The translations under genes were made by a program, and so were the position numbers. Shown here one piece after another: positions 7,774 through 55,387 of a stretch of 64,000 nt of DNA (position 1 is the first letter of the stretch; each line of letters begins with the position of its first letter). Origin of the DNA: Lophium mytilinum (lineage: Eukaryota); assembly GCA_010093605.1 (NCBI GenBank), contig MU004181.1, positions 620,001 through 684,000 of the forward strand. Reading direction: 5' to 3'. Under the pieces are notes generated by a model that did not search any database, had not been told where the DNA came from, and worked only from the letters and a program-made list of their open reading frames with translations.

Positions 7774-9337
7774 ATGAAGAAGACGCTACTGCTATGCTTC
7801 ATCCACGGATTCAAGGTGCGCAAATCTCTCTAGCCTATCTTCTCGGTACTGGCTGCGCTCCCCACCCTGCTGCCAGCTGAGCGCGGAGGTCTCGAGGTCC
7901 ACTCCCGAAGAACTCACTTCGCTATTCTACTCACAAGCTTGCGATCTTCGCTGATGTGGGATATAGGGCGGCGACGACACCTTCGGAAACTTCCCTTCTC
8001 ACCTCAAAGCGATCCTCCAACATGCGCTCCCCAAGGTTGAGGTGCTGGCGATTACGTATCCGAAGTTTGAGACACGGGGGGATCTAAAGGAGTGTGTGGC
8101 TAGGTTCAAGGAATGGTATGTCAAATACTCTCGATATCTGGAGATGGGAGGCTGTATCGCAATATCAAGTCACGGAGGCTAACAATTTCAAATCTCCAGG
8201 CTCCAAAACAAAGTCATAGACCTCGAAGTCGCCTCCTCAACCCCCTCCCCCACCGTCGACCCCTCCGTGCACACCATCCTCATCGGCCACAGCATGGGCG
8301 GCATCGTCGCCGCCGAAACCCTCCTCTCCATCACGCGCGAACAACCCATCCACTCCCCCTCCGCCTCCATGTCCAACACCACCTCCTCCACAAACCCCTC
8401 CGACTCCACCCATTCCCTCCCCGACGCCTCCACCCTCATGTTCCCCTACATAACCGCCCTCCTCGCCTTCGACACCCCCTACCTCGGCATCTCCCCCGGC
8501 GTCGTCGCCCACGGCGCCGAAGGCCACTGGAACACCGCCAAAACCGCCGCCTCGTGGTACACCTCCCTCAGCTCCGCCTTCACCTCCGCCGCCCCGGAGA
8601 CCTCCGCCGTCGAAGCCTCCAAAATGCTCCCCGCCGCCGCCGCAACCTCAGACGCCACCGTCGACGTCGCCGCCGCGCCCCTCTGGCAACGCTACGGCCG
8701 CGTCGCGCTTTTCGCCGGCGCGGCGGGTGCTGTCGCCGCGGGTGGTGCCGCCGCCTACATGAAGCGCGACGACCTCAGCAGCGGCTGGCAATGGGTCGGC
8801 TCGCACCTTGAATTCGTGGGCGCACTCGCCCGCGGTGCCGAGCTCGAAGCGCGGCTCGCCGCCGTCGTTAAACTCAACGAGTCACAGCGTATCGGCTTCG
8901 CGAATATCTACACCGCGCTCGGCCGCGCGGTCGAAACCTCTGCTGCCTCCAACGCCGGGGGTTACAGCTACGCGAAGCAGATCAGCGGGCCGAGTCGCAC
9001 GTTTTGTAATCTGCCGAAGAAGGATCTGGAGACGGGAAAGTTTTTCGTGAAGTCAGTGAATGATAAGGCGAGGGATGAGGCCGGGGCGCATATGGGCATG
9101 TTTGAGCCGCGGAATAATCCGGGGTATTATGGGATGAGTGAGCGGGCGAAGGAGTTGGTTTGTGGGTGGGTGCTTGGGGGGAGTTGGTATGAGGAGGCGA
9201 CGGGGTGGGGGAGGGGGGTTGCGTTGGAGGAGGAGGGGGTGGTTGTGGATCTGGAGCAGGAGGATGGGGATGAGGGGGTGGGGACGGAGGAGGGTGGGGA
9301 GGGCTTTGTGGATTTGAAGGGGAGTGTGAGGATGTAG
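7774..9337 (+). CDS. Alpha/beta-hydrolase (DUF676/lipase-like serine esterase)
   Basis: Start MKKTLLLCFIHGFK at 7774; two GT-AG introns (~7816-7965, ~8116-8199); nucleophile elbow GHSMGG and AFDTPYLG motif. Confidence 0.88.
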
Positions 9338-10312
9338 AGGGTGTGTATAGGAAACGGCTGATTTCATGAATCTCATATGGGTGGCTGGCGTTTGGCATCA
9401 AGCTGTGGTATACCCGCCTTCATTAGCATAAGAAATGAGTACACAATCTCCACCATCTCTCTCCTTCGTCCTCATATTTTCCCAATTAGCTAAACCGATC
9501 CCGAATACTCCATCCAAAAGGGGAGAAAACGACGTAAACGCCAGAACGCGCGAAACCATCACAGAACCCGAACACCATTACCCAACCCTCCACTCCCTCA
9601 AGGCACCTCGGGCAGTTGCACGATCCAAGAAAAGTCAACGCAATCACTTCCACGCGATTTGAAGGCCCCGGCAAAACAAAAACGCTACCACAGCCGATAT
9701 CCGACCTGGTAAACACCAGCCGAAAAGCACGTCAAAGTCCTCATAGTCGCAAAAAGCGCACAGATCGGTTTAATTCGAAGAGCCGGACTAGACGTACACA
9801 CCCCCGCCCTCGATACCAGGCCTCATATCGAGTGCCAGTGACCGCGTCTTTGCTGGGTTGAGGCAACCCTGACAGCCGCAAGACCTGGCCAAGCTATTAG
9901 CGCTGCCGGGCAATTTGAGGGGTGGAGGAGGGTGGGAGGGTTTTACTCGTGAGATTAGGCCTGATTTCCGACGGCAGTGGCTGGCTGGTTGTTTTGTTGA
10001 GGCACATCCGATAGGCGTGGTATCTAGTGAGGTGGACGGTGGATGCTTGACTGGTCGGGTGCGTGGTTGGGGCATCCGCGAGGGTGGTGAAGGGTGATAG
10101 ATGCAGGAGCAGGGAAGGTTTGGTTTTTATGCAGGATGTAGGATAGTTGCGTCCAGCGGTGTGGTAGGAAAAGGGGATGAGATTGTTTGGACCGAGATGG
10201 AATGAGATGCTGGGAAATAAAATGGGATAAATCTGGTCAAAAGGGGAATGATCGAGTTTTTCGAATACGAAATGGGATGAGAGTAACCGAAACTGGTGGG
10301 AATGGCCAAACG

Positions 10313-13300
10313 CTAGAAGGGATAGAAAGTGTAAAGAATCGTCGTAGATAAGGTAATAGTTATGAAGATGAGCGACAAGATTCGACGCCATTCCGTTAAA
10401 GCGTTCAGAATGTTTCTGATAGTACCTCCAGCGTCCGCAGAAGCGTCTTTTGAAGGAATGCCATCGCCGCTACGGTCAATCTCATCAAATTCATAGTCCC
10501 ACCCTATTTCGAAGTCAGACTTGTCACTTCCTGCGCCGTCCGCTGAGGTGGCGATACGAAAATCATATTCTCTCCAGCCTTTCAGGTTGGTTGGAAACGT
10601 AGCGTTGAGATGATACTTTCTAGATCCTTCTGCGTAGACAGCTTCGCTGAGATCGAGAGGTTCAATCTTCCGAGCCTCAATTTCCCAGCTTTCGGCTTGC
10701 TCGAAGAACGCGATGCACTCTTGGTCGCCAGATTCTTTAACAACATCGAGCGCCGTTTTCTCGTTGTCGTTTTTGCGATGCCTATCAGCCCCATTCTCGA
10801 CTAGAATTCGATAGACATCTTTCATAATATCGAGATTGTGTGGTATTTGCTCTTTCGAGCGAAAGACAGCCGAGATTGCCATGCAATGCAGTAGCGTGTC
10901 TCCTTTCTTGTTGACCACTTCAGCCCGTGCGCCACAGCTGAGCAGGGTTCTGATAACATCAGGCTCGAGTTCGGGGGTGCCAGCCCTGCGATATAGGGCG
11001 CAATAAAGAACGGATCCGCCCTCGCTATCGACTGATTCCACGGATGCAAAGTTCTGCACAAGATAGCGGACGATGTGGTCGTGTCCCCAAACAGCTGCTA
11101 CGCGGAGAGGGTTCATCCACTGGTTCCCCCATTTGTTAACATCCGCACCGTGGTTAATCAATATTTGGACCTTGTCGAATCGGCCTTTCTCACACGCAAG
11201 CATGAGAGGAGTGACTTCCCCACAGGCTAGATTGACGTCGGCGCCATGGTCGAGCAAGGGAATGAGAACGTAGCCGATAGAAAAACGATCATGCCTTCTA
11301 AAGGGAGAAGGGGATATACTGTCGATTCCGTAGTAAAGAGGAGTGAATCCGGCCATGTCTCGTGCGTTGGGATCCGCTCCATGTCGGATTAGTAGTTTCG
11401 TGATCCCGAAATACCTCCAGCCAGCTGCACGGTGGAGGAGCGTATCTTGTGACTCGAACGTCGCAGTAACGAGTTGTTCGCCTTCTCGTGAGCCTTCTAT
11501 CAAGGCTCTCGCTACTTCCACTAGACCGAGACCACATGCCGCGTATAGCATCCTTGCGATACCGGTTTCCGGGACGTTGTCAGGCCAAAAATGCTCCCAT
11601 ACTGACCGCAGCTCGTCGTTCTTCGCCATATTAAAAAAGACCTGGGTTAGCGCCCGACTAGATTCCATGCCAGGATCTCTGACGTGGTTTGGAAAATTCC
11701 CCAAGATGTACCATATCAGTGGGAAAGCTGACTGGATATCAGACGCAACTTTCGGTTCTTCTTGAAGCAGTTCACAAACGTGATAGAGGTACGAGACGCA
11801 AGCCTTATCTACGAACCTTCTTCCATCAATGCCGCGTATTCGAAAACCGCCAGATTCCTGTGATTTAAGGTACTCTTTGACGGAAAAGTGAGCTAGTCGA
11901 ATGGTTGCGTCAGTACTAGGCTCGCTTGTGACGAGGGCGCCCAAAATTTCGCGAATATGTTCTCCGCCTCTGAGCAGTCTATTGTCTACCTCGAACGATA
12001 CGTGCGCACGTGGGTCCACTACGGAAGCTTCGGCGAGCTCATCAGCGGTCAAATCTCGATCCGACGACATAAGCCACATGAGAGCTCGGTAAGCGAAATG
12101 TGTATCTTCTTTCAATATAGCCTGTAAGATTCGAGCATACGTCTCGCGGAGATCCAAAGGAAGGTCGCGCAACGCAGCGTCAATCTGCGGTAGGGTTTTG
12201 CATCTGCGAAGGGTCGTAATCTGACAGTATGCCCACCGGAACCTTCGCTCGCTGTTAACTTTCAAAGCTCGTTGCGGATCATACGTACACTTACATGCCA
12301 TTGGCCTTCTCGGTAAGAGTCCTCTCAACTCTCATTGCTACCTTTGGCGCCAGCTTTCCCAGAGTCTTGTCTTCTCTTATTTGTGTGGACACATAGCACG
12401 AGATGTCGGACTTCATTTGCTCGTTATCGATCGATACTTCTGGGATGGTCAACCACGGCTCCTTCAGAGCCTCCACGATGTCTGTCTCCCTACGACTGGT
12501 GATGAGTGTATGCATCTTAGAGTTCGTCCAACCTGATATAGCCCTGATTGTTTCCAGAACCTTCTGCCGTACGTCTTTCTTCGCCGGTGCCTCGTCAACG
12601 GCATCGATAACGAGGAACACATCTTCCACGTTTTTCATCTCTCGATCTATAATACGATGCAAGCATACAAGTAAGTCTGGCAACGATGGTTCAATCTTTC
12701 CACAGGAATGCTTTTCAAAGAGGTCCGCCAATGCTTCGGGGAAATCGTTGAGTGAATGTACGAGCTGCTGGATCAGGGACGCAACAAAGTTGTCCGCATT
12801 GCGGTCCGATGAGAAATCGAAGTAGAAATGTATGGTAATACTTCGAGTGTTCGTCTTACAATGCTCCAGCAGATGCTCAATCGCAGTAGAGCTGGCGAGC
12901 TCGTTATCGCCTTGTAGAGGATGGCATATCGAACCGAAGGAGGATGGATGTAACAATAGAGAACGAACGAACTCACCTTAGTATAGTCTTACCGCAACCA
13001 ACTGCCTGTAGTTAGTCTAGAGGTCCAGCCATCGAGGGTACGGAGCGGCTACTTACGCATTCCACTGAGCCACATAACAGAGCCTCTCGTCGTTTTCCAT
13101 TTTGAGAACTCTTCCAATTGAAACAGCCAATCTCCTGTTCCGGCTTGATGCTTTCGGCGAGCTTCCTTGTGGTTTACGGAAGTGTCAACAGCAGGGATCC
13201 ATTTGAGCATCTTTTGAAGTAGATTCTCCCGTTCCTTGATCGCAATATCGTCGCGAATCATTGTTGCGACACGATTCGTGTCTAGAGAAACAGTCCTGCC

Positions 13301-13766
13301 AGATGGTAAGCGGTAGGAAAGAGGACAATGAATAGACTTACAAGTTGTCACTCCCCAACGCCATTACGAGGCTCTCCCTATGGCTTCCAATAGTGTTGAT
13401 ACCATTCTCCATATCCTCTTTCTTGAGCGGCCAGTCCAGATTCTTCAACCAAGAATGCTTCTCCTTACGGTCACCTTGTTTAGCGAGCTTTGCGAGAAGG
13501 TCAGTCAACAATTCTGCGCATTCATCCCGTGGACCACCATCTTGCATCCATTCCGCAAGTATTGGCACTTTGCCTGCGTCTGATGAGGTCGCCAATGCGT
13601 TAAGCGCCTTCAAAGCGGTATTGAAAACACCTGCATGGTCCCGAAGGGTTTTGATTTCATTCGAAGCGCCCTTGACTGTCTGGTAGTAGGCGTCGCATGC
13701 CTCGAACAGTCTGAGTGAGAGCTCTGCAACGGCCAAAATCGCACTGCCTGTGCCGAGGACTTCCAT
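10313..13766 (-). CDS. NLR-1: HeLo-like N-terminal domain + NACHT + ankyrin repeats + C-terminal hydrophobic helix
   Basis: Exons 13766-13342, 13295-13057, 13001-12977, 12891-12295, 12242-10313. Motifs GTGDW, P-loop GMLGCGKT, Walker B LVIDAVDE, ITSR, GMFRW, AHFSVKEYL, ankyrin TPL/GADVN repeats. Confidence 0.9.
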
Positions 13767-14457
13767 GATGGTTTGTTCAAGTTCGAAATGGGCGAAAGGT
13801 GGACTTTCTGGTAACGGAACATATTTTTGAGAGCGGCTTCATGGCTACAGGGTGTTTTGAGTAAGGTTACCCCGTCTGAGGGGTATATCTATAATCCCTG
13901 TTCTGGTGTTCTGGTCTCTGTCTCACAGTACGACGCATTGCTCGACACGTAGTCTGGGATATACCGGCTGCGTGTGATTAATGTGTTCCACTGCTGGGAT
14001 TTCATATTGATGGCTCGACGAGTGTGACGCATGCAAATACTGAGGGACTGATTCGGACGCCTGGGGATATCATGGATTCGGTCTAGCTCCATCATGCTGA
14101 AGCATAGCCGCCAGGCCGACGGGCCCGCCGTGAAGTTTGCTATTGACTCATTGATGAGAAAGTCACTTTTGTTCCATTCTTCTCGACTCGCATTTCTTGA
14201 TGACGGCTTGAAGGGGTACGATGCCGATGTTGATTAGCTTCTCAGGCTCTCTCACCACGAGAGATGTAGTCTTGGAGACATCGAGTATAGCATCTACATG
14301 CCGCATTCCAAACGGTCGTGGAGATAAAAGTAGATGCTTGTGAGGTGGATTATCCTGATTATGCTGAAGGGGACGGGAGACGGAGATGGAGTGGACCCCG
14401 TGATGGGGTTATGCTGACAGAGGCTAGCGCCAATTCGGGCCGATCTGACATCTTCGC

Positions 14458-14938
14458 ATTTGTCGAATTCAAAATAGCACAGAACGCTTGGCGGATTTTT
14501 TCAAGCTTCCGCACCACGATATTCTGTGAACTCGCTCCACAGCACATTCTTTGGCGCCGTGTGTAGTACCTGTATATAGTTTATCTAGGTATAAGAAGCC
14601 TTTTATAGAGGTTTCAGCTTATAATATTTAGTATTAGTTATTTTATTTAGGGTACAAGCCTGCAGGAGAGATGTGGATGCACCAGAGTTGCAAAAGCGCT
14701 AGACCGCAGTAGTCTAGCGCATCTTGGCAGTTTCTAGACTGACTTTGCACTTAAATAACTCCTCTCCTTATGTATATTAGAGGCTGGAACTAAAGAACCT
14801 AAATAAGCTATAGAATAAGAGTCTACTATAGACATTTTAAGACTGTAGCTCTTAATGTGTGTTGGGGCTCTTTAAAAATGTGATGCGGAGCTCGAAAATT
14901 TCTGCCAAGCGTTCTGTGCTATTTTGAATTCGACAAAT
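14458..14938. mobile_element. MITE-like non-autonomous TIR element (~480 bp) with TpA-rich interior
   Basis: Perfect 35-bp inverted repeat ATTTGTCGAATTCAAAATAGCACAGAACGCTTGGC (14458-14492 / 14904-14938), extending imperfectly to ~60 bp. No clear TSD. Confidence 0.8.
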
Positions 14939-15400
14939 CATAAAGCGCTCTTTTGGCTCCATCTCTTACTACCAGTCTTAACAATTCGAGAAGTTAAGAC
15001 CTAACTATAATCAATATCTGAATTTCGAATAAGAAGGGACCCTCATATCAGGCCCAAAGTCCATGGCTTTTGACAGCCTCAATAGAAAGTTACAGTACCT
15101 CATACAGTCACGAGATGAGTGTATGCATCGCCATTGAACTCTCCAGTTTCTGCTATTCTGCTCTAAACGCGAAATACCGAACAGACCTGAGCGTTAAGTC
15201 AGAACAGGTATCGTTCACTAAGCATCACTCGTAGGCACCTCCCGTCTCCTTAGTAGCCCGTTAGTTCTTCATACCTGCATTATGTTGGACATTTCCTATG
15301 AGAAGATAATCTAAATAAGTCCAAGAGAAGTCTAACTCGGTTAGGAAAAGCAGAAACGGTCTCATTTTCAACCAACGCCACTTCGAAGATCCGCCAATTT

Positions 15401-18400
15401 TCACCACAGCCACAGGGATGCCGTCGTAAGAACCGAAAGGAACAGAATGAACAAGCTAGTAGAAGTTTGGAGGCGAAAGTCCCGGCCCCTGAGATACGTA
15501 CTCAGTTGCATTTTCCCCGCGATTACAGCTTTGCTTTCTTGGTCGTCGACCGTAGTGGGTAAGCCATCTCGATCCTCTGCGTCCGCGTAGTCGTACTGTC
15601 CTTCCAAATAAGCAAGAACCTTTATGACTGTCTTGTAAAAGTCCGTGTTTCTTGCTTCAATCTCTTCAACTCCCTCTGGTGGTGTATAGGTAGCGTCGTA
15701 TTTGATCACGTCCTCATAGCCATTTTCGATCAACAGTTCGCAGGCCACCCTCACACCGTCGAGGTTTCCGGTATGGAAGGCTAAGTACGCACAAGCTATC
15801 AGTGCATAATAGTCATTCGTCTCCTGGGGAGCGGTTATACCGTATACATCCTTTATGATTGGCTCCGGCTCTATACAGGCCAGCACGAAGGTGGAAAAGT
15901 CAGGCCCACTCGGGGTCGCGCCGTTCTCTAGCAATAGTCGTAGAGTAGAGAGGTTTCCCCATTTTGTGGCAACGTGAAGCGGTGTAACTTGGTTTTTATC
16001 ATAGAAATTGACATTCGCACCATGTTGTATCAGTATCTCTGCGATTGGCACATTTCCCCGCTCGGATGCTTTGTGTAGTGGCGTTTGTCCCTTCTCATCA
16101 CAGGCATCTGGGTTGGCTCCAGCCTCTAGTAATTCACGGGCTATATCAGGTCCGTTGTGGAGAGTATAGACGGTCGTATGAAGAGGGGTGCCTGTCGAGT
16201 AATCCTTTTTCTCGACGTCCGCTCCCATTCTTATCAAGGCCTTCGTAGAGTCGAGACGTCCGACGGTTGCAGCCAGATGCAGCGGTACCCATAGCTTTTG
16301 AGAGCGGCTAGAAATACCGCCGTTTCTATCGAGTCTGTCACCGACTTCACACGCAAGGGGACCTTCAATCAGGTCAACGTAGCCGAACGCTGTTGCGAGA
16401 CCGAGGAGTTGATTTGGGCCCTGAGAATCGCGAATGTACCTCAGGATAGCATTACTTGCGCGTGCTCTTGCACGAAAATTTTCGCCCCATATCCAGGAGT
16501 TGACGGGTCCGCAATGTACCACCAGCCCGGATACGGCCGTTGGTATGAAATGGTACTCACGCATGATATTATGAGACATATCTTTCCAGCGTTGAGATTC
16601 GTCGCAGTGGAGTCTGATCACTTCCCGCAAGTATGTGTGACTTGTATTAGATATGTTGTTCCGGTTGTGAACAAGATCAAGGTTGAAGGTGGTCTGCTGT
16701 TCTGAGAGCAAATACTCTTTGACCGAGAAATGAGCTAGGCGGATAGAAAAATCTTCCACGATCACTAGACTTCCCAAGATGTCGCATATGTTGGTTAGCG
16801 CTTGCCGAAGTCTTTTCTCGAAGCTGAACGCTGGTTTTTCGTGGGTTCCACTACGATCGCATCGGCAAGCGCACGAGCATTCCACGCTGGTTGAAACATG
16901 ATCCACATCAGAGCACGACGTGCGAGTTCGATATGCTTAAGGTCGATATTCTTCAGAATGCGTGAATATGTGGCGCCTAAAGTTTTCGGCAAGTCGACAA
17001 GAGTTGCGTCTAATTCTGACGAGCTTATGCATTTTCGAAGCTCAACCAATTGGCAATGCACCCAGCGAAACCTATTATGTCTTCGTGAGCAACTCCAAAT
17101 CTGTACTCCGATCCGGGATATACTTACATTCCATTAGAGCCTTTCGCCAATGCCGACTTCATTTTTGCCACAGTTTCCTCGGGCCAATCGTAAAGCCGCT
17201 CATCCTTTGTAATTTCAGCGGATATGTAATCTTCGATATCCCCGCTTATGCGCGAAGGTTCTATCGAAACCGAGACCGAGGTAGGTATACTGCTGATGCA
17301 GAATGCTTTTTGTATGTCTGTCTCCGGTCGACTCGTGAAAAGAAAACGTGTTTTGCTCTTTTGCCAATTCGACATCTCTTTAACAACACCGAGAACCTCA
17401 TTTCGGACCTCTCCCTGCGGGCACTCGTCCAGAGAATCAGTGATGACGAAAATATCAGTAGCACCCGCGATCTCAGAAGTAGCGCAATATTTCAACATCT
17501 CGACCACTTGGCGCAAGGAAGGCTTGCTTGTCCCGTGGTTACAATCCTGGTATAATTTCTCCAGTGTCGTCGGGATTGCTCGGGACTGAACGACAAGTTG
17601 TTGGATCAGGGAAGACACATAATTGATCGCGTGTCTCTTTTCCGTATCGGCGAAGTTGAAATAGAAGTAAGCAGTAGCGACTGCTGAGTTCTTGCTATGT
17701 TCTTCCTTGATGCGCTCAATTATGGTAGAGCTGCAGGCATTAGCAACGCGGAGAGCACACCACGCTCCATAAGAAAGCCGTACCTCAACACAGTTTTGCC
17801 GCAACCCGCTAGGCACAGTCAGCAAGAGGGTGTTTGGATCAAGTAGACCGACTCTTACTCTTTCCATTCAACCACAAGACCCTCCCGGGAGCCTTCTTCC
17901 AAGCCAGATATTCACCCAGCTCAAAGAGCCACTCCCCAGTGCCAGCCTGATGTCTGGTCCGGGCAATATTATGATCTGACGACGTATCTACCGAAGGTAA
18001 CCAATTTATGATCTTCTCGAAATAGGCCCGTTCCTTCTCTTGGGTAACTTTCCGATTCGTATCTTCAGACAAAGACCTTTCTCAATATAAGCATATATCC
18101 TATATAAGCCAAATATCTATGAATACTTACGCTTGATCAACATCTAGAGCCCGGTGAAGTATCTTGCTATCCTTCTCGATTCTCCCGATTGCTTTTTCCA
18201 CCTCCTTCTTCTCAATCGGCCACGCCAAATTGCTCAGTACTTTCTTCGTCCCACGGTACTTTGACCGCTGCCTTTCGCATCTCTTTTGCAATGTTTTGCC
18301 GACCTGTTCCAACTCCTCCTTGATTCTCTGCGCAGCGCCGGTTTTCTTCAGAACCTTTCCAATCTCAGGAAGTCGGTCTGAGCCCACGGACTCGGCCAAC

Positions 18401-18570
18401 GAGACGATTTTCTCGATGATGTCGCGGACCAACTCTACCTCCTCGCATAGACGCCTAACATCTTCGTCGGCATTGTTGACGTCGGTGAGATACTCGTGAC
18501 ATTGATTTGTGAGCTTCAGGGCGAGCTCGGCGAGTGCGGCGACGCTGACGATAACGCTTAAGGGATCCAT
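15401..18570 (-). pseudogene. NLR-2: HeLo-like + NACHT + ankyrin + C-terminal hydrophobic helix, with a 1-nt frameshift (pseudogene or sequencing error)
   Basis: Exons 18570-18131, ~18076-17859, 17808-17784, 17730-17128, 17071-15401. MDPLS start, GTGEW, GKTGCGKT, ITDSLDE, GMFRW, AHFSVKEYL. Frame break at the T5 run 16835-16839. Confidence 0.85.
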
Positions 18571-18817
18571 AGATTTGAACTGGTATCAAAGGATACGTAA
18601 GTACTGTCGAAATGATACCGCAGGATGAGCTGTTGCGAGGATAGAGAAAGAGACTGAAGCATGAACGGGCATGTCTTGAAATGAGGGGTAGTCGTGCAAA
18701 GTAATACCACGGCACAACGTTTCACTTCGCCACTCAGGGACAGATTTGCTGCGCTGTTCCTAGGCCCGGGGGTACTCTGTGTCAACAGCCCCTAGAACAG
18801 GCTAGAAAGTGATGCGT

Positions 18818-19054
18818 TTTGACACCCTTGATAATATGCTGAGCCACCTCACCAAGTTGCGACCTAGGGTGGGACATACAAGTTTCCCCCCCTCGTTATC
18901 TGCAACGCAGCAGTACAGTCTTCATTACCTAGTAGAAACAACTTGCAAAACTTGCACCAAGAACATATGGCCTCAATTAGGCTGAATATCTATCGCCTTT
19001 GAAACCCGTGATACCAGGTTGAGCCACCTCAGACGGCTGCTACCCTAGCGCGGG
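18818..19054 (+). repeat. Degenerate ~55-bp direct repeat (two copies, 180 bp apart) in the NLR-2/NLR-3 divergent promoter
   Basis: Core TGAGCCACCTCA at 18840 and 19020, with similar flanks (TTTGAnACCCnTGATA ... GCnAC(C)CTAG). Confidence 0.7.
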
Positions 19055-19401
19055 GGAGAGGGTGGTTAGAAACGTTTTCAGCTCCAATGATGTTTTAAAT
19101 GAATATCAATTTCCTATGTCATCGAAACCGTTCTGTGGCAAAGATTTCCTTCCGTGTGCCAAAGGTAATCTATTCTGATCCCGACTTGCAGCACCTCGTG
19201 ACACTATCACACAGTCAGTCCTATCCTAGTCTCTAACTCTCCGTGTAATGTTACCTGTCGCCAGGTGTAAAGTTGCGGAGTACAGAATTCTTGTGTGGTA
19301 TAACGATGGCACACAGCCCCTCTTTCTAATCATCGTCGATTCATCCCCTCCTACCATCATCCCTAAACGTCCCATGCCAAAAACGAAGTGGCCATACATC
19401 C

Positions 19402-22400
19402 ATGGATCCGGTCAGCGCACTCACCATCGTCGAAACTTCTAGCAAGGTCATTGGACTATGCTACTCCTACTTGAAGGGGGTCAAAGAAGCCGGAGACGAC
19501 ATCCAGCGCCTTCTCGACGAGATACATACGATCCGGGATTGGGGACAGCAAGTAGAGCGTCTACGGCAATCTCAGGACGCGGGCAAATTCACAGCGACGA
19601 TCGGCTTCTTGAAGAGAAACAAGGCAATGGAGGAGTGTAATAAAGAGCTAGCAAACCTGGAGGCGGTTTTGGAGAAGAGTTCGGAGAAGCAAAGGTCTCG
19701 CCGAGGGTTATTGAAACTCATGAAGAATTGGAAATGGCCGTTGGAGAAGAAGGACTTGGAAACAATCGTTGCAAAGATGGAGAAGCATGGGGATATGTTT
19801 GAGCGAGCTTTGAATCTTGATGTGGCGTGAGTACTCAATCTGCAGGCTTCAAGAGTTTCGGGACTGACGTGACGCCAGGACTATTGTTGCAACCACAGCC
19901 GACGGGGTCGATGTATTGCAGAAGAATGAATTGCTCAAGAAGGATGCCAAGATGCTCAAAGAGATTATGGAGTGGTTGCCAGGAATCGATACATCATCCA
20001 ACCACGAAGCGGCCCGGAAGAAACACCAGCCTGGAACGGGTAAATGGTTGATGGAACGCACTGCGCAGTTCTCGGAATGGAAGGGCACTCCTGGCTCGAC
20101 CTTGCTACTCCACGCCATACCTGGTTGCGGGAAAACAGTTCTATGCTCGACCGTCATCGAGCATATGAAGGAGTATTGCGGCTCAGATCCCCAGTCTGCG
20201 GTTATGTACTTCTATTTCGATTTCAACTCGGAGAGAAATGCTTCCAAATATGTTTCTTCGCTTATACAGCAGCTGATAAGGCGCTTCGATTTGAGTTCCG
20301 AATGCCTCAAATCGCTGTTCGAAGCTTGCAGAAAAGATAATTCTCGCCAACCAAAATCTCCAGAGCTTATTAGCATTTTCAAGAAGATAGTTGATATAGA
20401 ACTGTCCTCTGTGGCCAAGATCTTCATCGTTGCTGACGCCTTGGACGAGTGTTCGCCGAAGGACGACACTCGGGAGGAGCTATTAATCGCTATTGAGGAG
20501 CTCGCCAGGTGGCGGCATCACAAGCTAAATTTTCTTTTTACTTGTCGTCTTCTAGAGAGCATAAAGACACATCTCGCCCCGGCGTGCACTTGGGAACCGA
20601 TAGCTATCAAGACATATCAAATCGAGGTCGATATAGAGATATATATAAACACGCAAATAACGGAGGACCCAAAGCTCAATTGGTGGTCAGAGGAGCTCAA
20701 ATCAGAGGTGAAAGCCGCACTATCTCGCAAGTCGGATGGGATGTGAGTTCCCTCAATCATACCACACATATTCTCAATTGATGGTAACAGGTTCCGATGG
20801 GTGTATTGCCAAATCTTCGAACTTCGGAAGTGCCTGAATGAAGAAACTGTACGACATAAGCTATCAGATCTTCCGCAGACCTTGGAAGAGACCTATTCTC
20901 GCATTCTTAGGGGAATCGACAAGGGGTACGAGGAGTACGCTCGAAAAGCTATCATATGGCTGGTGTTCCTTAAAAACACTATGACCGTCGAAGCACTCGC
21001 CGAAGCTGTCGCTGTGGACGTCAAGAACAAGCGACCATTCAATACCAAGCACAGGATTCGCAACCCAGAAAGTAGTATATGCGACATTCTCGGAAGTCTC
21101 GTAATCATAGATCAAGTCGACGATGAGAAAAGAATTCGATTTGCGCACTTTTCCGTCCACGAATATCTCGTCAAAAACAAGGAGAAGTTCGGCGTTATGG
21201 ACGACGACTACCTCACCACAGTTGTGCCGTCCTGTGAGCTTTACCTCTGCGGTATCTTGAAAATGGAACTCCTGAGTAGCCGGCAAGGACAAGCGGTCGA
21301 ACGCTTTTGTCTTCTTCCTCATGTTATGTATCTTCTTTCCTGGCGTGCGACTATGCGCGTGGCTCGATACGCTAAACACAAAGTCTCCAATATAGAGTGG
21401 TTCACCAATCCCTGTCCAGAAAAGGAAGGAGCAAAAGTACCTAAAGACTGGCCGTTATTTCTTGATTCCGCAAACCTCGAAAGAGTCTTCTACATCACAG
21501 CCAGTGTTGGAGATGAGCTGTTTACCAACTTTCTACTAGCCAACGGGGTCAATCTCGTCGATATCCAATACACACGATGGAAAGACGTAGCACCGCTCCT
21601 ACATCACGCATTTCGTTATCCCAATATATTTGAGCCCAGAGTTCCAATGATATTGCTAGACCTGGGAGCCAACGTTGATGTGAGAGATCGCAACTTGCAG
21701 ACCCCTCTCCACACTGCGGCTCAAATGGCATGCCCTGGCATGGTTCGGTTTCTTCTGGAGCATGGGGCTAGTGTAAACGCCACGGATTGCATGCGGAGAA
21801 CAGCACTCCATCTGCTTATTATATTCCGTGAAAACCGCTTCAAAGAAAGGAATATTCCTGTCGAGATAGCAAGGCTGTTACTTGAGCACCATGTCAACGC
21901 GAATAGCAAGGATGTTCGTGGAAATACTCCTTTACTTCTCGCCTGCTACCGTGGCGATCTTGAAATGATTGATGTTTTACTCCAGTATGGCGCGAATGTT
22001 CAATGCCGGACGTGGTTAGATGGATACACCCCGTTGCACTGCGCAGCTTGGTCCGGATGGGATGGAATCGTTCGTGAGTTGCTTCGCGGAGGAGCAATAG
22101 TCGATGCGATGGACTCTTTCGGCAATACTGCTTTGCATGCCGCAGCTGCCAACGGGAACGCGGAGACTGTGGCTATTTTGCTCGAGCACAATGCTGACGT
22201 GCATACTCCCGACGAGTTCGGGATGACTGCTCTTCACTACAGCTGTCTAAAAGCTAAGCCAGACGTCGTCCGCGTTTTACTGCGGGGGCATACCTCAGTC
22301 AACAAGACAGATAGCTATGGACGAACGGCGTTGCACTTGTTGGTCCGGGACATTTCCTTTGACAACATAACCGGCTCCTGGGAAAATCGAGATCATATGG

Positions 22401-22792
22401 GGGAAAGCGAAAAAGACCTTGACAAAGCAAAATTCGTTGAAGCAAGAGGAGACATCATGACCCAAATTCTTACCGAAAAACCGAACGTGGTGGATGCCAA
22501 GGACATTTGCGGAAACACTCCCTCGGACGTTGCCAGAGGCTTGGAAGATTTGGAGTTCTGTTCACTGCTTGAAGAAGCCCACGTCCTGGCTGCGGAAACG
22601 CGAGAAATGCAACGCCTTCGAGACCAGAACATCACAAACCAAATATCAAAAGGTCGAAAGACGACCATAACGGCGTGGATTGCGGAGTTCTATGCCAAAC
22701 CGAGAGCGCCCACTTCGCTCGTCGGGAGCTTCATGGCGATATCTCTGTTATGCGGGCTTGTCGCTGTGATGCTAGGGATGCTTTCTTCGTGA
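19402..22792 (+). CDS. NLR-3: HeLo-like + NACHT + ankyrin repeats + C-terminal hydrophobic helix
   Basis: Exons 19402-19826, 19879-20742, 20791-22792. MDPVS start, GTGKW, AIPGCGKT, VADALDE, GMFRW, AHFSVHEYL, about 8 ankyrin repeats. Confidence 0.92.
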
Positions 22793-22950
22793 TGAGAGAG
22801 GGTTGGGGGACCTCACACGGTCGCTATCCGTGAACAGAAAACATTAATATTGATGATGATATCGTCGTTCGAGACTTCCGAAAACCCACTAATGACTCGC
22901 CCAGCGTCTCGTTCCCTCTCGTCGTCGCACCCATATCGCCAAGCGACGAT

Positions 22951-23929
22951 TTACGTCGATACGCACCCATCGGCACTATCCTCAACGAACAGCCCACCAT
23001 AAATCTGACCCTCGTTCAAGTTACTCTCTTGGTACCCGCTATTGACTACATCGCTTGTCCCAGTTGGCTTCTTCAACATGCCAATCTGAAATTGCCCGTT
23101 TCCAGAGATATCAGCCGAGATCGCGGTTGTCGCAGCAGTGAGAGCGGCTGTGCCGGCGGAGTAGTAGACTTGGATCGTACTAGGACGAGGTTCAGCATAT
23201 CAAGTTCATCGGAATCTTGGGAAACGTTCCTACTTCTTATTGTAATCGAGCGTCACCGCAAAGTTCTGCCATTGAGTGTTGTCGATTGGTGTAGACCACA
23301 AGATCTGATTGCTCCGGTTGAGGATCTTCCAGCTCGCTTTGTCGCTGCCGGAGCTTCCGATGATGGTGCCAGCTTCGAACATAAATTGGTCTGCGGAGTA
23401 GTCGGCTGTTTCGTGCCAGACATTCTTCAACATTGTCAGCATCAGCGCTTTCTTTCGGAAGATAGGTTCATGGAGAGTAATGTACCAAATACTCATGCGT
23501 CAGATTCAGCGGCCTGGTCGCATCCTGCTTGACACTCCAATGCAACGTCTTGACGCCACTAGCGCCTGGTCCCGTAGACGAATCGGACGCGAACTGCAAT
23601 CCCGCTCTCCTAAACCCATTCTGATTGTTGAAGATACTCGCGTCGGACAGAGTGACTTCAATAGCTTCATACCCGCTTCCATCAAAGCGGGAGCTGGAGA
23701 CGTTGGGAAGCTGCAAGATCTGGGACCACTTCAGGTTCGCGCCTTTAACATAGTCGGCATTGAAAAGAGCGTTCGAGGTGTCAAAAAATGTAGCAGCGGT
23801 GCCGACGGGCACACGACCGTCGAAGACGATAGGGCAGTTGATAGCGTTGACAGCACGCTTTGCTGGTGTGGGCGACGCGAAGCCAGCGCTAGCGAAGAGA
23901 GCCGCAGCCAGAAGAGTGAAGGATTGCAT
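22951..23929 (-). CDS. Secreted glycoside hydrolase family 131 (broad-specificity beta-glucanase)
   Basis: Signal peptide; CPIVFDGRVP, YVKG, QNGFRRAGL, LNLTHEY and GQFQIGMLKKPTG motifs; two introns; stop at 22951-22953. Confidence 0.82.
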
Positions 23930-41717: not shown

Positions 41718-42331
41718 GATCCATATGTCTGCCTGGCCTACCACTTTCGATAGAAGATATCATAGAATGACCAAGATTTGGGATATGCCGGATTTAACTT
41801 TATTTGGTCATGTTAAATTTTTTTTGACTCTTGCAGTGGTCAGGTCCTATGCGTGGTCCTCCTCCCCATGTTAATCACAACGTCGTCCAAACCTGAAGGT
41901 CGTCCCCCCCAACCATCAGAGCCCCCTTTGCTTGCCTGCTTGGTGTGCCGCGTGTGTAGCTATTCTACCTTGTCCTATTCATTTTAGTCGTGATTGACCC
42001 GGTCGTGGATGAGGAAAAAGCTACTTCCACGTACCGAGCTGGGCAAGCTAGATGGGGTTTAGGAAAATCGGAATGGAAAAATGTTGCGTTGCCTGATTGA
42101 CAGATATAACAATGATGTTTAGCCCATCGTTTCTCTACGTTTCGAACCTGTAGCCTAGAAAATAATGAATGTATACAGCTACCTACTTGCGAATGTCAGA
42201 TATGACGTCGCCCAGGCAGCAGTGGCACTATAACCGAAACAGCATAAGATCAGCACTAGCGCCATCATATTTCGCAAACATCCTCCTTTCCTCTCCACCG
42301 CACGCCTCCCACTGTTGTTCTCAACCTCAAA

Positions 42332-43930
42332 ATGACCCCGAAATTCGATCCCTCGAAGGTCCTCTACTCTGACCTTAGGGCAATAGAGTACTTGCTCAAA
42401 GACCTCACTCTAGAGTTCGCGGTGCTCGGATACTTGGACGTGGCACGCCGCTTGGTCTCCCTGCTCCACAGCCACGGCGGGCGAACTTCAGCTGCCGTTT
42501 CCATTGACCTTAAGAGCCTATGGTTCGCGTGGCAAGAAACGGGCGAATGGCCCACGGGCGAGCTCGAAAGGGCCAAGCGAGAGAAGAAAATGGTCCCCAA
42601 ATCCGGAGACGAAGAGCCAGCCCGCAAATCGCAACGCATTGCAGAGAAGCAAGCTGAGGAGAATTACCAAGCCGTAGAAGAAACACTGGTTGATATGGCC
42701 CAAGATTTTCCAAAGTCATGGTTCTTCCCGGATAAGTCAGCACTTGGCGGTCGAGCAAGCGGTGCGGAGGTGCCAGATGGTGAAGAAGCAAGTGCTATTA
42801 CGAAGGTGTTGGAGGCCATTCGAAATATGGACGACTTTGCCGATGCAACCTCTGGGAGTACTGCTATGGATAAATCCTCGGGACTCGTCCGGGCTCTGGA
42901 TTTGAGAATCAAGCTCGCTGACCAGGGTCACGTGGACGAGGACAAAGTACCGTCCGTAGACGAGATTCTGGGCATGATCGCAAGCAGAATGCACTCAAAT
43001 TATCAAATCAACTATCTTATTCAAAGCGCAAGAGCCTGGAAGATACTGAAGGACGGCGCCTTGGCCAAGGCAGTTGGCGTGGATGACGAAAAGGTTCAGT
43101 CCTTGGCAAAAGAGGTCGAAAAGACGTTCAAACTGCGGCTAGAAGGCGGAAAGAAAAGAAGGCCAGAACGGTCCATGTCAGAGCTTCTCAAAGAGCTAGC
43201 CCACAACACTGTCACCAACCCTAGCTCCAGGGAGGTTTTGATGGGAATGAAGGGAGACGAAGGCGAGCCCGATTCTCCTTTCGATGGAAGGAAGCCAGCA
43301 ACTCCAGAAGAGATTACGGAGCTCGAGAAACGGCTAAAGATTACTCTCCCAGATGACTACAAGGAGTTTCTGGGACTGACTAACGGCTTCGGGACAACGT
43401 GGGGTGGAATCCTCCACGACCCACCTTTGCATCCTACTACGGATGTAAACTGGTTTGGAGACGACGAGGATTACTTCTACGATCTTCATCTAGATCTCGT
43501 CGAGTCAGAAATCAACGCCATGGTTCGTGACTATCCCGTCATCGCCGATGCCGCGGACAGCTGGCCGACTGTCGGTATGGCGATTGATATTGGGAACGAA
43601 GACATCGACAGCGTGTGGCTGCTCCCTCCCGCAAATGTAGAGAAGCAAAGGGCTGCCTACCTGGAAATTCTGGACAACGAAATCTACCCAGAGGAACTCA
43701 AACGGAAGGTGCTATCGTCCATTGACGACTTTGCAGGTAGTCTTGAGAACTTCAAGAAGCTAGATTGGTGCACTTTGACTTGGGCATCTGGAGGATCTGC
43801 ACAGATGGAGTCCTTCTCAAGCTTCAAAGATTACATAGCCTCAAAAGTGGTGGATTCGGCGAACGAGTATCATCCTAACGGCGACGACGGAAACTTCGAG
43901 AACAAATGCTTTGCGTATAGCTGCCGATGA
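42332..43930 (+). CDS. SMI1/KNR4 (SUKH) domain protein
   Basis: Intronless 532 aa; PATPEEITELEKRLKITLPDDYKEFLGLTNG is a typical SUKH N-terminal motif; C-terminal SFKDYI. Confidence 0.85.
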   Translation: MTPKFDPSKVLYSDLRAIEYLLKDLTLEFAVLGYLDVARRLVSLLHSHGGRTSAAVSIDLKSLWFAWQETGEWPTGELERAKREKKMVPKSGDEEPARKSQRIAEKQAEENYQAVEETLVDMAQDFPKSWFFPDKSALGGRASGAEVPDGEEASAITKVLEAIRNMDDFADATSGSTAMDKSSGLVRALDLRIKLADQGHVDEDKVPSVDEILGMIASRMHSNYQINYLIQSARAWKILKDGALAKAVGVDDEKVQSLAKEVEKTFKLRLEGGKKRRPERSMSELLKELAHNTVTNPSSREVLMGMKGDEGEPDSPFDGRKPATPEEITELEKRLKITLPDDYKEFLGLTNGFGTTWGGILHDPPLHPTTDVNWFGDDEDYFYDLHLDLVESEINAMVRDYPVIADAADSWPTVGMAIDIGNEDIDSVWLLPPANVEKQRAAYLEILDNEIYPEELKRKVLSSIDDFAGSLENFKKLDWCTLTWASGGSAQMESFSSFKDYIASKVVDSANEYHPNGDDGNFENKCFAYSCR

Positions 43931-51336: not shown

Positions 51337-52694
51337 ATGGCGGATCTTATAGAAGAGTACCGCCAACTCAAGCGGGAGGAAGGCAGGTTGGATCAACAAT
51401 TCCAGCAGATAACGAAACGATTGGAGGAGCAGAGTGAGCAGGTTATAGCGCGGACTGATGTGGTGCAGACGCAAACCAAGAAGCTGGAGTCGCAAAGAGA
51501 AGAGCTGAGGATTCAGACCAGACAGCTACAAAAGCTGGAAGAAGAGGAAGAGCAGACCGAGAGAAAAAAGACGGATGTAAAGGTTAACAGACGGGTACGT
51601 CCCTCGGCCTGGATAGACACAGGAAACGAATTGACCGATCTACTAGAACAACAAGCGGAAACTTGATGCTCTCCAAACGTCAATCGACTCTATCCTTAGC
51701 TCCTTGCAGCAGCCGCGGGAAAAGACGCCTGCTCCCACCATATACGATCTAGAAACGACATCTAGCTCCTCACCTTCTCCAGCCGGACTGGGCGCTACCG
51801 GTCAGCTAGAGGCAGCCGCGTCGACTACACCATCGGCAGAAAATGTTTTAGATCAACTACAGCTTGCATCTCGGGGCAACAAGTCTCCTAGTCCACCACC
51901 GCAGAATCCACAAGATTCGCAGCTCCCACCCTACGTCCGCCTCGCAAATGTAGCCAAAAGTCTTCAAGTTCCATACCAAGCAGAAAAGACCGACTCGTTA
52001 CCCTCCAGAGAGGCATCAAGACCAGACGGGGTACGGAGCATTTCCGTCGAATTTCCGTCGATCAACATGCGTCGGAATGGTAAATACGTGGAACTGAGGT
52101 GCAGGACTGGGAGATGCGACAGCATATGGCCTGGCGTCAATTGCGCCCTGAAAGAGGGAGACTCGAAGGCAGCCGAGTTCAAAGGCATCGACGGGTTCAA
52201 GACGCATATAATAAGCTCACATCGTGTTGCATGGCGGCAGAGTAGCGGATTTCAGACCGATCCTTTGGACCGAGTTCTGTCGTTCTGCCGGCTCAAAGAG
52301 TTGAATGAGGCGGAGGTGGAGGCTATCATAGGGCGGGGAAGGATGGGCTATGAGAGTGAGTGTTCTGGATCCTTGACTGGATATGCATACTAATGGTGAT
52401 ATGTTGCTAGTGCAGCTGCTTCACCTAAACAGTCCTCCTAATAAACCTCCGTTTGAGCTTTCCGCGAAGCGAAAGAGAAGTCAGAGTCCTAGTAAAATAT
52501 CACCAGATCACAGTAGCCAGAACTCTGCCACGCTATCCCCTGATGAGGACGTGGACAAAGGTATAAAAGCTGTCAAATCCAATTCCTTTGCTAGTGAGCA
52601 AAGAAGCGGCGCGGCGAAGAGACGTCACACACGGTTCTTCCGGGTCCCGTCTAAAACACCTTCAATCTTTGATAATTCGGATGACTTGTTCTAG
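51337..52694 (+). CDS. Hypothetical protein: N-terminal coiled coil, low-complexity linker, possible Cys/His Zn-binding module
   Basis: Three co-oriented ORFs that can be joined by plausible GT-AG introns (~51595-51646, ~52356-52410). Confidence 0.6.
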
Positions 52695-54540: not shown

Positions 54541-54760
54541 TATTATATTAGCCTCTCTATTATATATTAGCCTCTCTATTATATATTAGCCTCTCTATTA
54601 TATATTAGCCTCTCTATTATATATTAGCCTTTCTATTATAGATTAGCCTTACTATTATATATTAGCTTTACTATTATATATTAGCCTATATATAGCTATA
54701 CTATTTTACTATATACTCTCTATTTTACTATATACTCTCTATTATACTATATACTCTCTA
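54541..54760 (+). repeat. Minisatellite (~18-bp unit, ATTATATATTAGCCTCTCT-like) inside the hAT
   Basis: Visible tandem iterations. Confidence 0.85.
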
Positions 54761-55387
54761 TTTTATTTTACTACTTAGCTAACTATCTATCTATCTTAGT
54801 TATTTAAAATCCGCCTAGAGCAGGTTAGCTATATTATTACTAATAATGCCCCTAATCTAGATATCCTTTTATAAGAGATAGCTAACTTTAGCATTAATAA
54901 ATATACCTAGTAACTATATTACCTTAGCTATATTATAAACCTAATTATTAGTACTCTCTTTATAGGTAAGTAGAAGGGAGAGTTTATAGAGAATTATAAT
55001 TATAACCTACTAGATAAGAAGATAGTATTAGAGCTATAAATCTAGCGCCGCATTAAACTAATTATAAAGCTGTAATATATTATAATATAGCTATTTAATT
55101 CTAAAAAGTGCATGCAGCGCCTGCTAAAGAGCTAGCTATAGGCTAGTAAGAAGAAGAAGCTTCTACCTATTAAGCTAGTAGTAACTAGATAGAATACCCT
55201 TAAGTTAATAATAGAGCGTATAGTTAAGATCTAGGTATATATTAATATAGTAGTTATAGAAGAGGTTATAGATATATATAGTTATATAGTCTTTATACTA
55301 TTCTTATACTTACTATTCTTATATCTACTATTATTTATATATTTACTATAATCTATATACTTTCTATTTTCTATATACTTTTTATTT

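Follow-up and report, generated by a model that had tools for sequence, protein, structure and literature searches.

Gene content and domain organization of the locus

Three paralogous NLR genes, here called A, B and C, are present in the window (the whole stretch of 64,000 nucleotides of Lophium mytilinum contig MU004181.1 that was analysed), with pairwise identities of about 30%. Genes A and B are a tandem pair on the minus strand, and gene C, on the plus strand, is divergent from them, as the sequence-only reading had described, and a profile search agreed with the domain order proposed there, detecting a NACHT domain (NPHP3_N) and ankyrin repeats in all three genes. The NPHP3_N profile (PF24883, cut-off 24.8 bits) scored 67.4 bits in gene A, 74.9 bits in gene B and 121.4 bits in gene C. 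The Walker motifs read from the sequence, GCGKT and D-A/S-[VL]-DE, are those of a fungal NACHT NLR, and the last exons of the three genes gave Ank or Ank_2 matches of 82-211 bits, in keeping with a repeat domain.

Gene A (10313..13766, minus strand) has five exons separated by introns with GT..AG ends (13296-13341, 13002-13056, 12892-12976 and 12243-12294), and its open frame encodes an NLR of 1071 aa that terminates at a TAG stop (10313-10315). Exon 1 (13342..13766) encodes an N-terminal helical bundle of the HeLo-like/PF17111 type, assigned from a Pfam match below the cut-off and an AF2 model. The NACHT region, at approximately 12492..13141, includes a P-loop mini-exon of 25 nt (12977-13001), which is spanned by the Walker A motif LGCGKT, and the Walker B motif reads VIDAVDEA. 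At least five ankyrin repeats, recognized by Ank_2 (93 bits), Ank (82 bits) and five TPLH-type motifs, occupy approximately 10680..11480.

Transcription of gene A is shown by RNA-derived contigs of run X1, in which three out of four introns, those of 46, 55 and 52 nt, are spliced and the 85-nt intron is retained. The run, labelled 'RNA?' by guess, covers gene A and its flank, and since its contigs are spliced, at least part of it is derived from cDNA. Its depth is 0 over 15164-23200, the region of genes B and C, a blank which carries no information on the expression of either gene. A spliced non-coding RNA extends approximately 1 kb past the stop of gene A in the X1 contigs.

Gene C (19402..22792, plus strand) has three exons, with introns at 19827-19878 and 20743-20790, and a full open frame encoding an NLR of 1096 aa that ends in a TGA stop (22790-22792). 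At least five ankyrin repeats, identified by Pfam and by repeat motifs, are present at approximately 21660..22560 (Ank_2, 211 bits), and a GPIID_WHD match of 20.4 bits was also detected. The frames of genes A and C are both intact, with Walker A and Walker B preserved.

Gene B (15401..18570, minus strand), recognized by Pfam matches and homology, has introns at 18077-18130, 17809-17858, 17731-17783 and 17072-17127, a P-loop mini-exon like that of gene A, ankyrin repeats (Ank, 100.5 bits) and a TGA stop at 15401-15403; if read through, it would encode an NLR paralogue of approximately 985 aa. Its spliced coding sequence of 2957 nt is one base under a multiple of three, and together with the switch of frame this places a -1 frameshift in a homopolymer of five A (16835..16839, minus strand). 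As assembled, the frame meets a stop after residue 520, ahead of the ankyrin repeats and the C-terminal tail, and past the homopolymer the homology to genes A and C carries on in the other frame. The tail of gene B is therefore in frame only with read-through. Gene B may be either a recent pseudogene or the product of a homopolymer assembly error. A short intron that would heal the frameshift was considered and rejected, the sole GT..AG pair over the break spanning 24 nt. The view of the locus as three NLR genes thus stands for A and C, which have open frames, but gene B is frameshifted in the assembly. Domain content and motifs support the assignment of A, C and, before or apart from its frameshift, B to the fungal NLRs, composed of a predicted helical bundle, a NACHT NTPase and a putative ankyrin sensor.

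Regarding the N-terminal domain, its description as HeLo-like holds as a similarity of the PF17111/SesA type, but every match falls under the curated Pfam cut-off. Exon 1 of gene A matched PF17111 with an E value of 0.0038 and 17.1 bits and exon 1 of gene B with 26.7 bits (cut-off 27.2), and exon 1 of gene C matched SesA (PF17107) with 17.6 bits (cut-off 26.3). PF17111, which we take to have been named Helo_like_N formerly, is called PigL_N in the Pfam version used. These scores refer to exon-1 translations only, with positions 1-135 of the 209 profile positions matched; the profile extends past exon 1 into exon 2, and the score of the spliced protein might therefore exceed the cut-off. Among 21 full-length relatives, six were above the cut-off for PF17111 and one for SesA. 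The AF2 model of the N-terminal domain of gene A consists of four long helices (mean pLDDT 79.4). Its VIA-align Z scores against MLKL (4btf_A, 9.4, with 100 residues aligned and an rmsd of 2.7), the Rx CC domain (4m70_A, 9.8) and MLA13 (8.2) are tied with those of unrelated bundles, dynactin p150 giving 10.2, and lie under the caution line of approximately 13 for helical proteins. Foldseek gave no match of the N-terminal model to the PDB at E <= 0.001. According to passages of PMC10197012, HeLo-like domains rely on an N-terminal helix with transmembrane (TM) propensity.

The hydrophobic C-termini

All three genes end in an uncharged, hydrophobic stretch that runs up to the stop codon; the C-termini quoted in the sequence-only reading were exact to the letter, as was the basic residue it had placed ahead of each. 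Tail A (10316..10387, minus strand) consists of RR followed by ILSLIFITITLSTTILYTFYPF, with 22 uncharged residues, and was assigned from hydrophobicity scales, the AF2 model and the RNA contig. Hydrophobicity scales likewise identify tail B (15404..15475, minus strand), in which R is followed by LQTSTSLFILFLSVLTTASLWLW (23 uncharged residues), and tail C (22697..22789, plus strand), in which KPR is followed by APTSLVGSFMAISLLCGLVAVMLGMLSS (28 uncharged residues). Charged residues number 0 of 22, 0 of 23 and 0 of 28 in the tails, against 19-20 in the 60 residues preceding each.

The TM-like character proposed for the tails was computed on all three and found again, with scale values in the TM range and low helical moments. 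Over the full length of each spliced protein, no 19-residue window is more hydrophobic than the tail (Kyte-Doolittle, KD19: A 1.94, B 1.72, C 2.44). Next come a helix of the N-terminal bundle (1.53 in A, 1.68 in B) or, at 1.60, the Walker B strand; for comparison, a Fung_rhodopsin-domain ORF of the window has TM helices with values of 1.74-2.17. Only 3, 1 and 5 residues lie beyond the best window in A, B and C, so that, by these scales, a TM-competent segment is located within approximately 30 residues of each C-terminus. Additive Hessa sums were -0.88, -0.06 and -1.55, and Eisenberg <H>21 values were 0.65, 0.60 and 0.74, for tails A, B and C, respectively. The corresponding helical moments of 0.20, 0.13 and 0.06 indicate that the tails are not amphipathic. 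Hydrophobicity is only moderate in tails A and B, which have many Ser and Thr residues.

Chance is an unlikely cause of the tails, because among 892 ORF ends from all six frames of the window only 6 combine a KD19 of at least 1.7 with an uncharged run of at least 22 residues, and three of the six are these NLR tails. An origin as amyloid signalling motifs was ruled out, the tails being plain hydrophobic runs of low beta moment at the wrong end of the NLR; known fungal NLR amyloid motifs, as described in passages of PMC9815663, are at the NLR N-terminus.

Additional 3' exons that would replace the tails had been named as a possible objection. For gene A an X1 contig spans 9945-10359 unspliced, including the stop and the last 14 codons of the tail, and coverage by X1 contigs is lacking over 10360-10431, which includes the first third of the tail. 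No intron with consensus donor, branch and acceptor that could replace the tail was found in the last 600 nt of genes A and C. The objection thus finds no support in these two genes as far as the contig, for gene A, and the intron search reach, but gene B has one candidate donor, a GTACGT located 98 nt before the stop, which pairs only with acceptors 170-352 nt downstream, giving atypically long introns.

That the tails share no sequence, as had been stated, holds at the DNA level, where the three 3' ends, compared in search of a 3' exon or mobile element that they might share, gave nothing beyond chance matches of 9-17 nt, but at the protein level MAFFT aligns a few positions (SL..F....L). 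Ahead of the tail, genes A and B have a common motif, T-x-L-[KR]-G...D-F-R-[IL]-x-T-S; the other frames downstream of the corresponding 'DFRIATS' motif of gene A hold no remnant of a TM segment. The AF2 model of the last 243 aa of gene A, built from a 3-sequence alignment (mean pLDDT 54.8), has ankyrin helices followed by a stretch of pLDDT <50 at residues 121-208, a disordered linker of approximately 88 residues, and then one helix at residues 200-240 with pLDDT 68-81.

Relatives and probable origin of the tails

Approximately 300 relatives were examined; relatives at 25-45% identity have the same NLR architecture. Comparable tails were found in 0 of 100 related proteins in one set and in 2 of 150 in another, both of these being short fragments (237 and 190 aa), and in none of the 53 related metagenome loci (out of 80 fetched) that have a stop inside the locus. 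In these data the trait is thus limited to the present cluster. No orthologue of A, B or C was found among these sequences. The nearest full-length relative, P0101, is annotated as 'partial' and ends inside an ankyrin repeat, and is therefore uninformative on tails. When the C-terminal 203 residues of gene A were compared with 5.8 billion proteins, none of 978 candidates reached E <= 0.001; a metagenome scan with the last exon of gene C alone gave 61 pattern matches and no relative, and a search of the ESM Atlas with residues 500-666 of gene C returned only generic ankyrin clusters, mostly bacterial, which are uninformative.

Regarding the history of the cluster, monophyly of A, B and C was not rejected, the constrained tree being 0.53 lnL better (AU p 0.512). 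Free tree searches did not group the three genes, all of which are on long branches, and FastTree and the IQ-TREE 'quick' tree place them differently; given this disagreement, we propose no order of events. Genes A and B have in common the positions of two introns around the P-loop. The tail probably arose once, in an ancestor of A, B and C, and would then have been kept through approximately 70% sequence divergence.

Proposed membrane anchoring, its alternatives and known systems

Fungal NLRs are usually treated as soluble effector-NOD-repeat proteins and, to our knowledge, almost none of these numerous proteins has a known ligand, location or mechanism. An anchor built into the protein, if real, would say where some of them work and hint at what they may monitor, namely events at organelle surfaces. 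What can be read directly from the three genes is the domain order, a tail at the very end of the protein that is hydrophobic in the TM range, is hardly amphipathic and has no charge inside or after it, and the basic residue before it. On these features, we give about even chances to the reading that the products of A and C, and of B apart from its frameshift, are tail-anchored NLRs, probably located on the endoplasmic reticulum (ER).

In the mechanism that would follow, each protein would be tail-anchored by one transmembrane helix at its C-terminus, joined through a flexible acidic linker, and insertion of the tail after translation would leave the whole receptor on the cytosolic face of the membrane. 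The ER would be the likeliest target, because no charge follows the TM domain (TMD) and the GRAVY of the TMD is approximately 1.7-2.4; passages of PMC5450235 give a GRAVY > 1.75 for yeast ER tail-anchored proteins and state that the ER is favoured when the tail has little or no charge. The tether would restrict the sensor to the membrane surface and concentrate protomers in two dimensions; upon activation the NACHT domains would oligomerise, and the membrane-targeting N-terminal helices may then insert into the same or an apposed membrane, leading to cell death.

A C-terminal hydrophobic helix might also be real without spanning a membrane, packing within the protein or between protomers, or binding a membrane or lipid droplets peripherally; it could, for example, shield the hydrophobic N-terminal HeLo-like helix at rest, or join the oligomer or pore once active. 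The moderate hydrophobicity and Thr/Ser-rich composition of tails A and B, with Hessa sums near 0, would suit such a role, the N-terminal helix, as the second most hydrophobic window of both proteins, is a possible partner, and the long flexible linker would let the tail fold back. Set against this are helical moments that lack the amphipathic face expected of a packing or surface helix, the strong hydrophobicity of tail C, and an AF2 model which gives no confident packing and places the linker under pLDDT 50; moreover, 22-28 uncharged hydrophobic residues exposed at a free C-terminus would normally be captured by the tail-anchor targeting machinery. We regard a helix of this kind as unlikely.

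It is improbable that the tails are absent from the mature proteins, whether through unrecognised 3' splicing or because the genes are decaying and their read-through ends are meaningless. The frameshift and the candidate donor of gene B point in that direction, as do the intron retained in the gene A contig, by which the protein would be cut short at the P-loop, the spliced RNA downstream of gene A and the relatives without tails. The intact frames of A and C, without a consensus 3' intron, and the RNA contig running unspliced through the end of tail A and the stop argue for the opposite, and three accidental tails in three paralogues are very unlikely given how few ORF ends in the window qualify; the tails are also uncharged, against about one third of charged residues in the 60 preceding positions. 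Still another reading, in which the N-terminal helix is a secretion signal and the C-terminal stretch a GPI-attachment signal, so that the proteins would be secreted and GPI-anchored, has a surface likeness in its favour, with a hydrophobic N-terminus in A and B and a hydrophobic C-terminus after small residues. We consider it scarcely credible: the bulk of each protein is made up of a P-loop NACHT NTPase and ankyrin repeats, the N-terminal domain is of the cytosolic HeLo-like/SesA class and its first helix belongs to a predicted four-helix bundle and not to a cleavable signal. NACHT-ankyrin and HeLo-like/SesA proteins act in the cytosol.

In a further reading, which we hold less likely than not, the three genes would define a class of membrane-resident fungal NLRs that stay on the membrane of an organelle at all times, the ER or nuclear envelope being the likeliest, with the ankyrin sensor kept near the surface by the flexible linker, and in which activation would drive the HeLo-like helices into the same membrane and initiate death from the organelle. 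The case consists of one three-gene cluster with one broken member and is offered as a lead rather than as a demonstrated class. If true, the sensor could watch membrane-proximal cues such as ER-remodelling effectors or viral replication complexes, or damage to the organelle.

The domain order of the three genes, including a winged-helix region, and their occurrence as clustered, fast-evolving paralogues are shared with the fungal HeLo-like (HELL, PF17111)/SesA-NACHT-ankyrin NLRs (catalogued in PMC4986451 and PMC9815663). After the last ankyrin repeat, A-C additionally have a linker of approximately 60-130 residues and a hydrophobic C-terminus of 22-28 residues. The suggestion that this architecture is undescribed agrees with word searches of the main texts of the catalogues, which gave no mention of a C-terminal TM segment in fungal NLRs, and no other published description of one was found; the supplementary tables of the catalogues may differ. 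With tail-anchored proteins, a class reviewed in PMC5450235 and PMC5214336, A-C have in common a single hydrophobic segment that ends 0-5 residues from the C-terminus and follows a large, cytosolic-type N-terminal domain; the cytosolic flank carries a basic residue, and the GRAVY of the TMD is within the reported range. They have no homology to any known tail-anchored family, the anchor being predicted here from sequence.

A like logic, in which a C-terminal anchor pre-positions a death or immune protein on an organelle, is found in MAVS and the Bcl-2 family, by analogy only, as these have unrelated domains and no NACHT. Both are animal tail-anchored proteins of innate immunity or cell death, and A-C, if anchored, would be a fungal counterpart of such hubs, with death initiated at an organelle and not at the plasma membrane. 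The HeLo domain of HET-S/HELLP, the MLKL four-helix bundle and plant CC-NLR resistosomes may resemble the bundle predicted here, with its hydrophobic first helix; unlike A-C, if these are anchored, they lack an anchor at the C-terminus and go to the membrane only once activated. Tail anchoring, if true, would be a third NLR route to membranes, beside the lipidation or polybasic patches of NLRs in animals and plants and the insertion that CC, HeLo and MLKL domains undergo upon activation.

Gene models and domain architecture

Investigation of the interval 10313-22792 revealed three genes of one family, all with introns, in a surrounding context of fungal type. Models were drawn from frame maps and junction sequences and then checked by script. 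Gene A (minus strand, ATG 13766, stop 10313-10315) encodes 1071 aa and has introns of 46, 55, 85 and 52 nt, gene B (minus strand, ATG 18570, stop 15401-15403) has introns of 54, 50, 53 and 56 nt, and gene C (plus strand, 19402-22792) encodes 1096 aa and has introns of 52 and 48 nt. A 25-nt mini-exon bearing the P-loop is common to A and B, and neither of the introns flanking it is present in gene C. As assembled, the spliced CDS of gene B (2957 nt) is broken by a -1 frameshift in the A5 run at 16835-16839 (-): the upstream frame closes at residue 520 with '...VVEPTKNQRSASRKDFGKR' and a stop, similarity to A and C resumes in another frame from 'PAFSFEKRL...', and one extra A in the run would restore 'T-K-K-P'. 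Since a 478-codon frame downstream of the frameshift is still open, the break either marks gene B as a very recent pseudogene or is a homopolymer assembly error.

Regarding domain architecture, the NACHT and ankyrin assignment of the sequence-only reading was borne out by Pfam, with NPHP3_N, the NACHT family used for such proteins, scoring 67-121 bits and strong ankyrin matches in all three proteins. For the HeLo-like N-terminus proposed in the same reading, every Pfam match of the exon-1 translations falls below the curated cut-off: A scores 17.1 and B 26.7 bits against the 27.2 needed for PF17111, and C scores 17.6 bits against the 26.3 needed for SesA. PF17111, listed as PigL_N in the Pfam release used here, is presumably the former 'Helo_like_N'. 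Among 21 full-length relatives, 6 were above the cut-off for PF17111, 1 for SesA and 1 for HET, with no N-terminal family at E <= 1e-5 in the other 13. AlphaFold2 (18 rows; mean pLDDT 79.4, pTM 0.74) predicted N-terminal helices at 2-30, 36-59, 79-102 and 116-139. A Foldseek search with this model gave no match at E <= 0.001, and VIA-align against 48,161 chains gave Rx CC (Z 9.8), MLKL (4btf_A, Z 9.4, 100 residues aligned, rmsd 2.7; 6ux8, Z 8.6) and MLA13 (Z 8.2), all below the VIA-align caution line for helical proteins and level with unrelated bundles (dynactin p150, Z 10.2; IncA, Z 9.4). The prediction would suit a member of the HeLo-like/MLKL/CC class without proving that the domain is one.

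Hydrophobic C-terminal tails

The C-termini of A, B and C exactly match those quoted in the sequence-only reading and run uncharged to the stop for 22, 23 and 28 residues, preceded by RR, R and K-P-R, respectively. In all three alike the tail is the top 19-residue hydrophobic window of the whole protein, with Kyte-Doolittle means of 1.94 (A), 1.72 (B) and 2.44 (C), the second-best windows being a helix of the N-terminal bundle (A 1.53, B 1.68) or the Walker B strand (C 1.60); for comparison, the TM helices of a Fung_rhodopsin-domain ORF in the window score 1.74-2.17. Additive Hessa sums are -0.88, -0.06 and -1.55 kcal/mol and Eisenberg <H>21 values 0.65, 0.60 and 0.74 for A, B and C. Helical moments are low (0.20, 0.13 and 0.06), thus the tails are uniformly hydrophobic and not amphipathic. 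Charged residues number 19-20 in the 60 residues preceding each tail and 0 in the tails. AlphaFold2 on the last 243 residues of gene A (3-row alignment, mean pLDDT 54.8) predicted ankyrin helices followed by low confidence over 121-208 (pLDDT below 50) and a single terminal helix at 200-240 (pLDDT 68-81).

As a chance baseline, all ORFs of at least 40 aa in the six frames of the window were scored at their ends (892 in total); a 19-residue Kyte-Doolittle mean of at least 1.7 was found in 20, an uncharged run of at least 22 in 23, and both in only 6. The tails of A, B and C have both properties, so that three accidental tails in three paralogues are very unlikely. The observation of hydrophobic tails is real and non-random. 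Regarding replacement of the tails by splicing, the final 600 nt of the A, B and C coding sequences were scanned for a consensus donor, branch point and YAG acceptor, with no intron candidate in A or C and one in-frame candidate in B, which retains the tail; a GTACGT donor in B, 98 nt before the stop, has acceptors only 170-352 nt away, as against 46-85 nt for the established introns of the three genes.

The sole public run matching this DNA (X1, contigs, type guessed as 'RNA?') agrees with the window at every position compared. In its contigs 13296-13341, 13002-13056 and 12243-12294 are spliced out, each with GT..AG ends in minus-strand orientation, and gene A is therefore transcribed, with three of its four introns confirmed. 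X1 coverage does not extend to the A5 run of gene B. The 85-nt intron (12892-12976), which follows the P-loop mini-exon of gene A, is kept in the only contig covering it, and this form ends directly after the P-loop (GKTILR, then stop), which would give a truncated protein; its retention could mean that splicing at this micro-exon, which gene B also has, is regulated or inefficient. One contig is unbroken over 9945-10359, comprising the last 14 codons of tail A, the stop and 3' flank, and coverage has a gap at 10360-10431.

Past the gene A stop this same minus-strand contig splices out 9885-9946 (62 nt, GT..AG) and continues for about 590 nt beyond this intron, with stops in all frames, thereby spanning about 9296-10359 from inside tail A to about 1 kb past the stop. 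The RNA could belong to gene A as a long 3' UTR containing an intron, in which case it might be an NMD target, or it could be an independent non-coding transcript.

Relatives and proposed membrane anchoring

As proposed, A, B and C belong to one family, and pairwise identity across the last exon is near 30%. By BLAST they resemble each other no more than they resemble their best database matches (28-32% identity). Pre-ankyrin trees were unstable, with all three genes on long branches, and the AU test did not reject an A+B+C clade (constrained tree 0.53 lnL better, p 0.512). The 3' ends show no DNA similarity among them, in keeping, at DNA level, with the earlier statement that the tails share no sequence. 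A single origin is hinted at by the A/B mini-exon and a pre-tail motif ('TNLKGWREYDFRIATS' in A, 'TYLRGRDFRLQTS' in B, 'PTSLVGSF' in C).

The pre-ankyrin region of C, compared with 5.8 billion proteins by word-indexed search, gave 100 matches at 22-55% identity, of which 0 have a 19-residue mean of at least 1.6 in the last 40 residues. Among 1.84 billion representatives, searched exhaustively by profile, 10424 matched at E <= 0.001; of the 150 best, 2 have a tail, both short pieces (237 and 190 aa) ending before room for ankyrin repeats. Some of these database proteins may be truncated. Scanning with the three-gene alignment gave 80 metagenome loci at 24-40% identity, with no tail in the 53 whose in-frame stop falls inside the locus. 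P0101, which carries the name Lophium mytilinum and the label 'partial', is the best of the full-length relatives; it ends within an ankyrin repeat and therefore says nothing on tails. The last 203 residues of gene A had no detectable homologue in the protein search, and no orthologue of A, B or C was found in the databases searched. In the data searched, the tail trait is limited to this cluster.

Full-text literature searches gave no description of C-terminal TM segments in fungal NLRs. Matches to 'C-terminal transmembrane' were animal innate immunity reviews, presumably concerning MAVS. In the word-searched parts of the main texts, 'transmembrane' is absent from PMC9815663, PMC12258605 and PMC4986451, and is used only for HeLo, MLKL and gasdermin in PMC10197012 and PMC12881547; the part of PMC13449251 covered has one 'TMH', among domain abbreviations in a figure legend on N-terminal domains absent from Podospora NLRs. 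As far as these literature searches show, the proposed tail-anchor architecture is new for fungal NLRs.

In the portions covered, a TMD near the C-terminus is the only defining feature of the tail-anchored class (PMC5214336), and yeast ER members have TMD GRAVY > 1.75, with low tail charge or tail removal favouring the ER, positive tails mitochondria and highly positive tails peroxisomes (PMC5450235). A, B and C combine a large cytosolic-type N-terminal part, a charged and probably flexible linker, basic residues before the tail, and one predicted C-terminal helix that is hydrophobic throughout and has no charge after it; this combination would fit the operational definition of a tail-anchored protein. 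Because post-TMD charge is zero and GRAVY is 1.7-2.4, the ER is our best guess for location, with A and B borderline. Gene B is broken as assembled, and none of the relatives searched shares the trait. The tail-anchor reading is plausible; its basis is hydrophobicity as scored by scales, an AF2 model from a shallow alignment and RNA that partly covers gene A. A C-terminal anchor would keep the ankyrin sensor close to the membrane and might promote NACHT oligomerisation in two dimensions, after which the HeLo-like N-terminal helices could insert into the anchoring membrane; HeLo-like N-terminal domains depend on a helix with TM propensity, according to the part of PMC10197012 covered.

Neighbourhood of the cluster

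ORFs in the neighbourhood match GH131, Fung_rhodopsin, SMI1_KNR4 and IPP transferase. A 556-aa ORF at 42260-43927 (+) has a C-terminal SMI1_KNR4 (SUKH-1) domain (E 7.9e-11), its first ~340 residues having no family match. Between A and B lies an element of about 480 bp (14458-14938), apparently a multi-copy MITE-like transposon. Its two ends, 14458-14517 and 14880-14938, are inverted copies of each other, about 60 bp long and 90% identical; X1 summed depth is 79.6 in the bin 14717-15163 versus 5-9 in the flanks, and at 14456/14457 and 14939/14941 X1 contigs diverge into unlike sequence. The block 52001-56000 is strongly AT-rich (GC 0.396 at 52-54 kb and 0.256 at 54-56 kb, versus ~0.5 elsewhere) and may be a RIP-degraded repeat.
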